This document shows, in pieces, positions 104 through 1,664 of a stretch of 13,368 nucleotides of DNA (positions are counted from its first letter, which is position 1; every line of letters begins with the position of its first letter). The notes below the pieces were generated by a model. The model was not told where the DNA came from. It made no database searches and was given only the letters and a program-made list of their open reading frames with translations. Made by a program: the position numbers and the translations under genes. This DNA is from a virus (lineage: Monodnaviria; Loebvirae; Hofneiviricota; Faserviricetes; Tubulavirales; Inoviridae): IMG/VR virus record IMGVR_UViG_2630968543_000001, one strand, 5' to 3'.

Positions 104-370
104 TTAGTCCTGCTGTCGACCAGGGGCATCATAACCTTGTCTTTTTCGCCATGCTTTTTCACCTCTCTCCCATATAACCGTGTCATTAGTTAGCTTTCTA
201 AATTTCGCTAATACTTTTTTATCAATGGATAAATTTCCATTAGCATTCAAATATACGAAAGTATCGCCAAATAACTCTTTTATTTTATATACAACAGTTT
301 CTTGATATAGCCAGTTTGTGTTTTCCAGCTCTGATTTCATCCATTGTGCAACATCATCTACAGTAGCCAT
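104..370 (-). CDS. Hypothetical 88-aa protein, distal gene of a two-gene operon
   Basis: ORF-track 88 aa. On the minus strand the ATG is preceded by AAGGA 5 nt upstream and sits 10 nt after the stop of the upstream 264-aa ORF. No domain recognised by eye. The region is visibly AT-rich. Confidence 0.5.
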   Translation of the reverse strand: MATVDDVAQWMKSELENTNWLYQETVVYKIKELFGDTFVYLNANGNLSIDKKVLAKFRKLTNDTVIWERGEKAWRKRQGYDAPGRQQD

Positions 371-380
371 ATATGTCCTT

Positions 381-1175
381 TTATTTTGGTGAGATTATTA
401 CTTTTACCGAAATTGAATTTGTACAACGCTCAAGGTCATTCTCCACACCAATTGGATTGGCAATTCTACCTTCAGGGTCATATACAAAACACACTAAAGT
501 TTCGCAATCAGGATGCGTTTGATAATGAGCTATATCAACAATTAATTGCTCACCAACTTCTTTTTGCTTGAGATTTTTTCTCGTTTTCTTTAACTCGATA
601 ATGATTTTTTCATTCTTTAACAAGAAGTCAACTCGTGTTGAAGATCCTGCATAGCTTGGCGTATATTCTTCTGGTCTGACATCCTCGAAATGAATCTTCA
701 AAAGAGCATGAAATAAATCCTGAACGTCATATTCGTCATTTATTTCAATGGTTTGTCTATTATCGTGTCGTTGCTGTAGCTGTCTTGCAACCTTATGAAA
801 TTGATGGCAAATTAGTTCAACAAGAGCTACGGGATCATTTTTTGTCTCTATGAAATTCCCGTCAATTCCATATTCTTCAATCTCAGCAATCATAGACGTA
901 AGAAGAGAATGTGCTTCATCTAAACCACTACAAAATGCGTTATCGAAAACATAATCTGGTGTATCACCAACAAATGCCATTAAAGAGTATCGAATTGAGC
1001 CAAATTCTTTTTTGTGATCTGACTCTTCACCAAATATTTTTGATATGGCGGTCTTAGTGTTTCTTTGCCATAAGTTAAAACTTGGGTTATTTCCTGTACT
1101 CCTTCGTTCATTTTGTATTGCTGGGATTTGCTCCCGTTGTCTTTTTAATATCTCGATAGCTTTTTCTGGCTTCAT
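381..1175 (-). CDS. Hypothetical 264-aa protein with a PD-(D/E)xK-like nuclease motif in the C-terminal half
   Basis: ORF-track 264 aa with GAGGA 7 nt upstream of the ATG. Residues E164 (HFEDV), D183 (RVDFLL) and E194-L-K196 (IIIELKK) have the order and spacing typical of the restriction-endonuclease-like fold. No confident family assignment from memory. Confidence 0.6.
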   Translation of the reverse strand: MKPEKAIEILKRQREQIPAIQNERRSTGNNPSFNLWQRNTKTAISKIFGEESDHKKEFGSIRYSLMAFVGDTPDYVFDNAFCSGLDEAHSLLTSMIAEIEEYGIDGNFIETKNDPVALVELICHQFHKVARQLQQRHDNRQTIEINDEYDVQDLFHALLKIHFEDVRPEEYTPSYAGSSTRVDFLLKNEKIIIELKKTRKNLKQKEVGEQLIVDIAHYQTHPDCETLVCFVYDPEGRIANPIGVENDLERCTNSISVKVIISPK

Positions 1176-1241
1176 TATCTTTCCTCAAGACTAAAAAATA
1201 ACCACTCTGAACTTCACCGCTGATATATGGAGCAAAATTGC

Positions 1242-1664
1242 TTACCAATAATAAGAGTTTCTTCTGTGCCACCAATAAAGCAGACCGTATCCGACGATAA
1301 GAATACCGAAAAACATTAACGACATTCCCCAGCCAGTTCCGTACCACGAAACCATATCATCGAAAACCAACCCACCCATTTCACGTACTCCGGCAGCTTC
1401 CTTAAGAATTGGTTTGAATACCGGAATCAGAAGGGCGATCGCCAGTGGAGCACCCCAGCGAACAAGGCCTGTTTCCATTTTGATCCCGAAAAAGATCCCC
1501 GCCCCAACAACAAGCAGCCAGACTATCAGGCCAGGCGCAGTTTCCAGTGCTGTTTGCCATTCAACATCGAAAGTTTTCATTAGCCAGGCAACAACTGCCA
1601 GACAGAAAGCAAATACGCCGACGACAACCAGTTCAACGCCGCTTGTTTCGTTATTTCTACTCAT
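1242..1664 (-). CDS. Small integral membrane protein (about 4 predicted TM segments), function unknown
   Basis: ORF-track 140 aa with hydrophobic segments at roughly aa 10-28, 45-61, 71-83 and 113-132. AAGGA lies about 8 nt upstream of the ATG on the minus strand. A 66-nt gap separates it from the downstream 264-aa gene. It is visibly GC-richer than the two downstream genes. Confidence 0.5.
   Translation of the reverse strand: MSRNNETSGVELVVVGVFAFCLAVVAWLMKTFDVEWQTALETAPGLIVWLLVVGAGIFFGIKMETGLVRWGAPLAIALLIPVFKPILKEAAGVREMGGLVFDDMVSWYGTGWGMSLMFFGILIVGYGLLYWWHRRNSYYW

Follow-up and report, generated by a model that had tools for sequence, protein, structure and literature searches.

The stretch of DNA analysed here (IMG/VR virus record IMGVR_UViG_2630968543_000001), 13,368 nt long and referred to below as the window, is a whole inovirus prophage of the CUS-1/YpfPhi type integrated at the chromosomal dif site of Escherichia coli. 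We conclude with high confidence that the AT-rich segment near its left end (101-1241, minus strand) is a swappable cargo cassette that occupies a single hypervariable slot of the phage. In the window, the slot holds two genes on the minus strand, one coding for a predicted 264-amino acid (aa) nuclease (381-1175) and the other for an 88-aa DUF6953 protein (104-370). It is followed by a gene for a 140-aa membrane protein (1242-1664, minus strand). Taken as a whole, the data are best explained by a swappable cassette in a fixed slot, with the nuclease cargo as a likely effector of defence or exclusion, and we regard this explanation as reasonably probable. An earlier sequence-only reading had placed the three genes at the correct coordinates. 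It had proposed that the two-gene module was acquired separately from its neighbours and that the membrane-protein gene may belong to another functional unit.

The hypervariable slot and its cargos

The distribution of the module was determined in 5426 complete E. coli genomes. The module was found in 23 of them, the membrane-gene region in 126, and the pII gene in 103. Thus, of the 103 genomes with the phage backbone, 23 carry the module, and about 78% of otherwise near-identical prophages are without it. Comparison with these module-less copies revealed that the homology ends exactly at the stop codon of the membrane gene (1242) and restarts at position ~100. In nine E. coli-type loci the junctions were resolved to the base, and the sequence between them was unrelated, 395-1222 bp long, and of 31-36% GC. 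The borders of the slot are therefore the membrane-gene stop codon on one side and, on the other, the end of the attP hairpin (~100), which reads ...GCGAACCAA. The separate acquisition proposed earlier is supported both by the rarity of the module relative to the flanking genes and by the presence of unrelated cargo at the same junctions elsewhere.

At least 10 types of cargo, unrelated to one another, were seen in the slot, with the same two junctions in the E. coli-type loci. The zinc-ribbon protein ECs_2282 together with a 159-aa protein occupies it in GON1437, 16843, PEC422, and one contig of a metagenome-assembled genome (MAG), an AbiJ_NTD4-DUF7014 protein in STIN_95, proteins of 123 and 155 aa in F11, and a 110-aa protein in APEC E19057. 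In UTI89 (the CUS-1 clone), the slot contains one open reading frame (ORF) of 369 aa (L029, 3608-4717); its product has hydrophobic, probably membrane-spanning stretches by reading and gave no family match. The 363-aa protein of CUWW06 (L032, 1295-2386) is 29% identical to the UTI89 protein, and from this comparison the two are classed as highly diverged alleles of one cargo type. Proteins of 240 and 89 aa were found in Klebsiella spallanzanii, of 120 and 129 aa in Photorhabdus, and of 87 and 135 aa in YpfPhi. In YpfPhi the membrane gene is replaced too, as positions 103-1683 of the window are exchanged as one block and homology restarts at 1684, just upstream of the candidate origin hairpin. 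The ECs_2282 cargo is present in two phages that differ in their repressor and structural modules; therefore, the cassettes move between backbones.

The membrane protein that adjoins the right border of the slot matches phrog_4174 (E=1.6e-85) and shows about four hydrophobic segments by sequence reading; no Pfam match and no NCBIfam family were found for it. Its gene is 94-98% identical next to seven different cargos and in two phage backbones, and its codon usage is that of the backbone. This agrees with the earlier suggestion that it belongs to a different functional unit, and we describe it as a semi-conserved backbone gene. At a deeper level it is dispensable, because YpfPhi has the entire block 103-1683 replaced and lacks the gene.

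With attL on one side and the putative replication origin on the other, the module lies within the phage unit, as shown by its repetition in every tandem prophage copy and its presence in viral contigs. The order within the tandem unit of E. coli GN02323 is DUF6953 gene, nuclease gene, membrane gene, repressor and so on to the secretin and two small ORFs, and three IMG/VR viral contigs represent the same phage with the module included. The sequence-only reading had treated the module and the prophage as separate neighbours. A distinct history is what we found, but not a separate location.

Cassettes would be exchanged when the conserved flanks recombine, the partners being co-resident or tandem inoviruses and related plasmid elements that bear the hairpin. 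In a circular or tandem form of the phage, the left flank would run on into the conserved right end. Since the cassette lies on the repressor strand, it would be transcribed in lysogens, and transcription would end at the attP stem-loop (38-69). Both genes have good ribosome-binding sites and are separated by a 10-nt spacer. The GC-rich stem-loop GGCCGCTGCG...CGCAGCGGCC, seen by sequence reading and in the computed fold, forms the tip of the attP hairpin and is flanked by A and T runs; it is likely a bidirectional terminator that ends the cassette operon.

Variants of the attP hairpin were also observed outside the phage. The distal hairpin with its 3' arm (27-98), without the dif-like 5' arm, occurs at ~93% identity on ~440 E. 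coli plasmid records. In the one plasmid that was opened (L033, 2501-2571), the hairpin variant lies directly downstream of an STM4504/CBY_0614 (AbiJ_NTD4-DUF7014) gene and beside an ISNCY transposase gene, and the STM4504/CBY_0614 protein is 60% identical to the cargo of the STIN_95 phage. In GON1437, the same variant (L002, 1409-1484) follows a SIR2 gene and ISNCY, between hipA and the prophage. The cassette boundary, ...GCGAACCA, is identical for the plasmid and SIR2 variants. These hairpins may be the mark of cargo exchange between inoviruses and plasmids.

Base composition of the cassette

The GC content of the genes was determined from base counts. The module (104-1175) has 35.4% GC, with 35.6% and a third-position value (GC3) of 27.0% for the 88-aa gene and 35.3% and 26.0% for the 264-aa gene. 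The corresponding values are 47.5% and 46.1% for the membrane gene, 42.3% GC for the non-redundant prophage (5586-13368), and 41.5% GC for the whole window. In a 300-bp profile the step was placed between ~1180 and 1300. The chi-square test on base counts separated the module from the membrane gene (p=1.8e-5) and from the backbone (p=1.9e-5), with p=0.038 only for the membrane gene against the backbone. Fisher's test on GC3 gave 2.8e-5, 1.1e-5, and 0.06 for the same three comparisons. Thus the marked AT-richness of the two genes and the higher GC content of the membrane gene and the prophage, noticed earlier by eye, were both confirmed by calculation.

As soluble and membrane proteins do not use the same amino acids, the composition was compared with a control in which synonymous codons were resampled for each protein from the backbone codon usage in 2000 simulations. 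Both module genes were AT-richer than predicted (z=-3.3 and -4.5), and none of the 2000 simulations was equally low. The membrane gene fitted the backbone codon usage (z=+1.2; expected 46.2%, observed 47.9%). Consequently, the anomaly is the module and not the membrane gene, and the module carries a compositional signature foreign to the backbone.

The lowest 1072-bp window of the backbone has 36.0% GC, so no backbone stretch of this length comes down to the level of the module. Shorter AT-rich patches (31-34% GC in 300-bp windows) were observed at 2901-3300 and 4900-5200, which equal 6770-7170 and 8770-9070, inside the pII and pIII genes. As such patches match the module in AT-richness, composition on its own would suggest, but not prove, a separate origin; the proof comes from the comparative data. 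An ordinary fluctuation within the phage, or an effect of the amino acids (soluble proteins rich in Lys/Asn/Glu/Ile as against a membrane protein rich in Gly/Ala/Val/Leu), with no separate origin of the module, could appeal to the 300-bp patches down to 31% GC, to the amino acids that account for the high GC of the membrane gene, and to the ~7% of 423-bp backbone windows that are as GC-rich as this gene, but it is scarcely credible, given the deviating synonymous codons of both module genes and the junction mapping, which refutes it by showing the module replaced at exact junctions in most near-identical prophages.

The nuclease, the DUF6953 protein, and the function of the cassette

The 264-aa protein contains a REase_DpnII-MboI domain (Pfam PF18742, 6.9e-59), above the gathering score and with the catalytic motif E148...D183...E194-x-K196 intact. 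In an alignment of 30 homologues from several phyla, E148, D183, and K196 were invariant and E194 nearly so. The predicted structure (pLDDT 84) consists of an N-terminal four-helix bundle and a C-terminal alpha/beta nuclease core. The protein is a predicted nuclease with an intact PD-(D/E)XK core. No NCBIfam family was found for it, and a literature search on the 'DpnII-MboI' family returned nothing relevant. Among the PADLOC profiles, Aga_Helical-REase, which is associated with prokaryotic Argonautes (pAgo), matches residues 97-263 (E=1.3e-34). Residues 1-107 match positions 1-103 of PDC-S35, a single-gene candidate profile of 264 positions (E=3.6e-11). This match is not full-length: the two have the N-domain in common but differ in the C-terminal part.

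The only solved relative found by sequence was EcbAgaN (profile E=2.7e-4). EcbAgaN consists of a helical and a PD-(D/E)XK domain, is autoinhibited, and becomes a non-specific DNase once activated; its D298A form is described as inactive (PMC13535254). EcbAgaN/bAgaN is the nuclease effector of the long-B pAgo (BPAN) abortive-infection systems (PMC13535254, PMC10620215). The phage protein resembles it in having a helical N-domain and a PD-(D/E)XK C-domain with the core motif EY.VQ.L ... R[IV]D ... IE[VL]K, in which D183 aligns with the essential D298. It differs in length (264 versus 390 aa) and in its N-terminal domain, which is not detectably homologous: the PADLOC match begins at residue 97, and the alignment with the PDB entry covers the catalytic core only. 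It also differs in context, as no Argonaute gene was found in the window or beside the homologues examined. Any activation must therefore use another trigger, and the protein is not a member of BPAN. Nor is the cassette a classical restriction-modification system, because its two genes do not include a methyltransferase.

The nuclease family is large, with more than 3600 homologues of ~260 aa, and identity remains at 52-60% even in Bacteroidota and Firmicutes. In the contexts examined it is normally a solitary gene; it was found in a Citrobacter prophage, with an insertion sequence (IS) and ParDE genes in Magnetospirillum, and with IS1 and PemK in Riemerella. Homologues are present on 33 viral contigs, 3 of which are this phage and 30 are others, of 33-63% GC, and none of these 30 carries DUF6953.

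The 88-aa protein, the product of the distal gene of the cassette, matches DUF6953 (Pfam, 1.8e-28) and is predicted to adopt a winged-helix fold. A marginal match to the MTase_II profile was also noted (0.0098 over 53 residues), and no NCBIfam family was found. The protein has 91 homologues. The order of nuclease and then DUF6953 is kept in Pectobacterium brasiliense and in Morganella, where DUF6953 is intact and the nuclease is reduced to a 52-aa remnant (L012/L013). In P. polaris (L006) the nuclease stands alone, 85% identical to that of the window and with intact catalytic residues, at the same SnoaL/DUF3811/LysR chromosomal site at which P. brasiliense (L014) has its copy. Distant DUF6953 genes follow unrelated genes (GDPD, DUF2158). 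As each gene is found without the other, we conclude that they form a facultative pair; an obligate two-gene system was rejected from these contexts.

By analogy with EcbAgaN, the nuclease may be a stand-alone effector of defence or superinfection exclusion, a role that we give a little less than an even chance. The helical domain would hold the nuclease inactive until another phage infects, whereupon DNA would be degraded. DUF6953 would act as an optional DNA-binding regulator or adaptor rather than as an essential partner. The slot itself has a defence flavour: the AbiJ_NTD4 cargo of STIN_95 matches PADLOC PDC-S32, and the SIR2 gene by the hairpin variant in GON1437 matches PDC-S25 (2e-82). 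With Aga_Helical-REase/PDC-S35 for the nuclease, three cargo types thus match PADLOC candidate or effector profiles.

Several points weigh against the explanation as a whole. Seven of the ~10 slot cargos gave no defence-type match, and where PADLOC profiles did match, they were those of candidate families or covered a single domain. In the literature search, no experiment was found that links the nuclease family, DUF6953, or PDC-S35 to phage defence, and no paper that mentions DUF6953 or PDC-S35. A promoter and terminator scan of 1-2450 found promoter-like sites at chance level and no convincing promoter for the cassette. Recombination is a proposed mechanism of cassette exchange.

A service to the phage or host other than defence, be it in phage replication, integration, or regulation or, as has been proposed for CUS-1 and YpfPhi, as a factor of host fitness or virulence, is improbable, though it fares best among the other functions considered. 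The modest in vivo fitness effects reported for CUS-1 and YpfPhi (PMC4266046) are in line with it, as are the transcription-factor-like fold of DUF6953 and the regulatory region that the cassette adjoins. Against this, ~78% of these prophages have unrelated genes in place of the module, so the phage life cycle can do without it. The nuclease family also occurs across phyla and in unrelated viruses, and the cassette has nothing that looks secreted or host-directed.

A toxin-antitoxin or addiction module is slightly less probable still. In such a module, with the nuclease as toxin and DUF6953 as DNA-binding antitoxin, the pair would stabilise a prophage that can be lost as an episome; YpfPhi is reported to be unstable in that form (PMC4266046). 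The tight small operon with its 10-nt spacer and the conservation of the pair in P. brasiliense would suit this idea, and the Morganella locus, with its nuclease remnant beside an intact DUF6953, shows the usual decay pattern of toxin-antitoxin modules. The obligate co-occurrence that it implies was not found, since the >3600 nucleases compare with only 91 DUF6953 proteins. At the locus that holds the pair in P. brasiliense, P. polaris has the intact nuclease alone, 30 of the 33 viral contigs have the nuclease without DUF6953, and distant DUF6953 genes follow GDPD or DUF2158.

An orphan type II restriction enzyme of the DpnII/MboI kind would cut incoming DNA at unmethylated GATC, while the host would be protected by Dam. 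E. coli is Dam-positive, the cassette has no methyltransferase, and the protein belongs to Pfam REase_DpnII-MboI, all of which fit. We nevertheless consider this quite improbable, as the protein does not match DpnII's own Pfam model at E<=0.01, its closest characterised relative, EcbAgaN, is a non-specific DNase, and homologues 52-55% identical to it stand alone, with no adjacent methyltransferase, in Riemerella, Paenibacillus, and alpha-proteobacteria. To our knowledge, an N-terminal helical domain of the regulatory type is not a feature of DpnII or MboI. A classical restriction enzyme was likewise judged unlikely, from the missing methyltransferase, the lack of a DpnII-model match, and the non-specific nearest relative.

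Returning to defence or exclusion by the nuclease, a more far-reaching version can be formulated, which we regard as doubtful. The 264-aa protein, optionally with DUF6953, would be a new Argonaute-independent anti-phage nuclease acting by abortive infection or exclusion. The attP-hairpin slot would at the same time be a general exchange point for defence genes in Enterobacterales, trading with IncF-type plasmids and with chromosomal remnants that have the same hairpin (STM4504/AbiJ-like, SIR2). This trade might involve a site-specific mechanism, linked to Xer or pII, and not homologous recombination alone.

The phage was compared with known systems. It shares with CUS-1 and YpfPhi the same backbone and the mode of integration at dif, in which attL is hybrid and an intact dif is kept on the right-hand side. 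It differs from CUS-1 of E. coli O18:K1:H7 in its cargo, the CUS-1 clone UTI89 having the single 369-aa ORF, and from YpfPhi, in which the 87- and 135-aa ORFs come with replacement of the membrane gene as well. According to the 2014 review of these phages (PMC4266046), the attL-adjacent ORFs of YpfPhi have no predictable function, and CUS-1 has unrelated ORFs in their place; the review does not describe a multi-allelic slot. Identity of the module with puvA of CUS-1 was considered and rejected, as the same review describes puvA as a virion receptor-binding protein.

In Vibrio inoviruses of the CTX-I group, the regions termed pHVRs are fixed hotspots of ~1-2 kb with horizontally exchanged cassettes that are reported to include the anti-phage systems Abi, RM, CBASS, and PARIS, and degraded elements that keep their cargo have also been described (PMC12715192). 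The slot described here is similar in its fixed position between conserved phage sequences and its unrelated content among similar phages (nine loci, at least 10 cargo types), and the SIR2/hairpin remnant in GON1437 may be compared with the cargo-retaining elements. The positions are different: the Vibrio region is flanked by zot and xafT, at the opposite end to rstR, whereas this slot extends from the attP hairpin to the membrane gene and origin, on the repressor side. The published study is limited to Vibrio (PMC12715192), and the cargos found here do not include a validated defence system. The literature thus already covers both the variability of the attL-side ORFs in CUS-1/YpfPhi and the defence hotspots of Vibrio inoviruses, and the new element is a cargo slot resolved to the base, with the attL-end ORFs as alleles of one exchange point.

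Among tailed phages, cI-rexAB of lambda is a comparison case for cargo beside a repressor. Defence hotspots of P2/P4 temperate phages and their satellites have been described as well (Rousset et al. 2022, as cited in PMC12715192). These systems resemble the slot in that their cargo is interchangeable, low in GC, and confined to a fixed position between conserved phage genes; it lies downstream of the repressor, on the strand that lysogens express. They are dsDNA phages or satellites with validated defence genes, whereas here an ssDNA inovirus of ~9.5 kb carries genes of predicted function.

The phage family is of medical relevance, as it includes phages of extraintestinal E. coli and of the plague bacillus, and the nuclease family, with its many members and viral contigs, is a testable candidate for defence. 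If the defence reading is true, the concept of the inovirus hypervariable region as a defence hotspot would extend from Vibrio to Enterobacterales, and it might help to explain why hosts retain prophages that are otherwise costly. If it fails, the module is a tidy but ordinary moron cassette.

The phage backbone, its integration, and the candidate origin

The core inovirus genes were identified by Pfam matches to Phage_CRI (1.2e-73), G2P_X_C (4.8e-34), Zot (2.2e-26), and Secretin (1.3e-24). The pII protein is 100% identical in amino acids to that of the Yersinia pestis YpfPhi copy, and positions 1684-2400 of the window are 99.4% identical to it at the DNA level; therefore, the phage was assigned to the CUS-1/YpfPhi type. 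The complete backbone (5586-13368, plus strand), running from the repressor through the two small ORFs next to attR, was delineated by Pfam and by the annotation of an identical prophage in E. coli GN02323 (L001). On this strand it contains pII (6247-7299, with both Phage_CRI and G2P_X_C), after which a gene for an ssDNA-binding protein is listed, the coat protein (7917-8150), a pIII-like protein (8215-9927), a DUF2523 protein named in the GN02323 annotation and probably pVI-like, Zot/pI (10231-11256), and the secretin (11256-12500).

The HTH repressor gene (1764-2210) lies on the minus strand, together with the membrane gene and the cassette, and its product matches HTH_3 (1.6e-9) and Phage_CI_repr (4.4e-4). 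The YpfPhi homologue of this protein is described as RstR-like (PMC4266046), and we use the same term here. At the right end, two small ORFs adjoin attR (12589-12837 and 12983-13231), of which one matches phrog_6642. They are homologues of YPO2280a/YPO2281 (PMC4266046); neither gave a Pfam or NCBIfam match, and nothing xafT-like was found in Pfam. Judged by their location, a Xer-activation factor resembling XafT could be among their products.

The left end of the window (1-100, plus strand) contains attL with the retained folded-attP hairpin, which forms the conserved left border of the slot. Positions 4-18 (GGTGCGCATAATGTA), which comprise the dif-like XerC arm with part of the central region, are identical to the first 15 nt of E. 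coli dif. An intact, exact 28-bp dif was found just right of the identical prophage in GN02323, and the hipA side lies left of the prophage in other strains. As ssDNA, 1-100 folds into a long forked hairpin (folding energy dG -31.1 kcal/mol, z -8.3), a ~100-nt imperfect palindrome in which 1-6 pair with 95-100 and the dif-like arm pairs with its inverted partner. A folded attP of this architecture is found in CTXphi. The hairpin is 97-100% identical in all phage relatives compared, from E. coli, Y. pestis (YpfPhi), and Photorhabdus. In searches with the whole window, no match was found in the INPHARED phage collection by megablast, and nothing in Rfam reached the gathering score.

GN02323 (L001, 1-23400) has the 9.5-kb prophage in a head-to-tail array of three or more complete copies; the module is present in every copy, and an intact dif comes after the array. 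In many other genomes, 2-3 prophage copies were seen. Contigs of this enterobacterial inovirus were also observed in GTDB MAGs labelled Aerococcus sp. and Candidatus Nanosynbacter (L025, L026; 86-96% pII identity), and contig L026 has the ECs_2282 cargo as well. These contigs are probably mis-binned.

A conserved hairpin, AACGTGCAGT-GTTGGTAAT-ACTGCACGTT (1707-1735, plus strand), is the candidate origin of the (+) strand. We infer that the (+) origin lies here and that pII nicks at GT^AATA (1722/1723), within AACGTGCAGTGTTGGTAATACTGCACGTT. The element 1708-1753 recurs in K. spallanzanii and in one other contig. The window further contains an exact tandem duplication, in which 1721-5585 equals 5586-9450 (3865 bp, 100% identity at an offset of 3865). 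The duplicated segment lies outside the cassette and comprises the repressor, pII, the ssDNA-binding protein, a small protein, the coat protein, and the 5' part of pIII, and it yields a chimeric truncated pIII ORF (4350-5660). At the junction 5585/5586, the sequence reads ...GCTGCCGT/AATACTGCACG in pIII, as against GTTGGT/AATACTGCACG in the hairpin loop. The crossover is thus at GT^AATA in the loop, with GT microhomology to pIII (CCGT^TAAT). An identical duplication junction is present in STIN_95 (L003, 9344/9345), whose cargo differs. This junction looks like the result of pII nicking at GT^AATA followed by illegitimate termination of rolling-circle replication.

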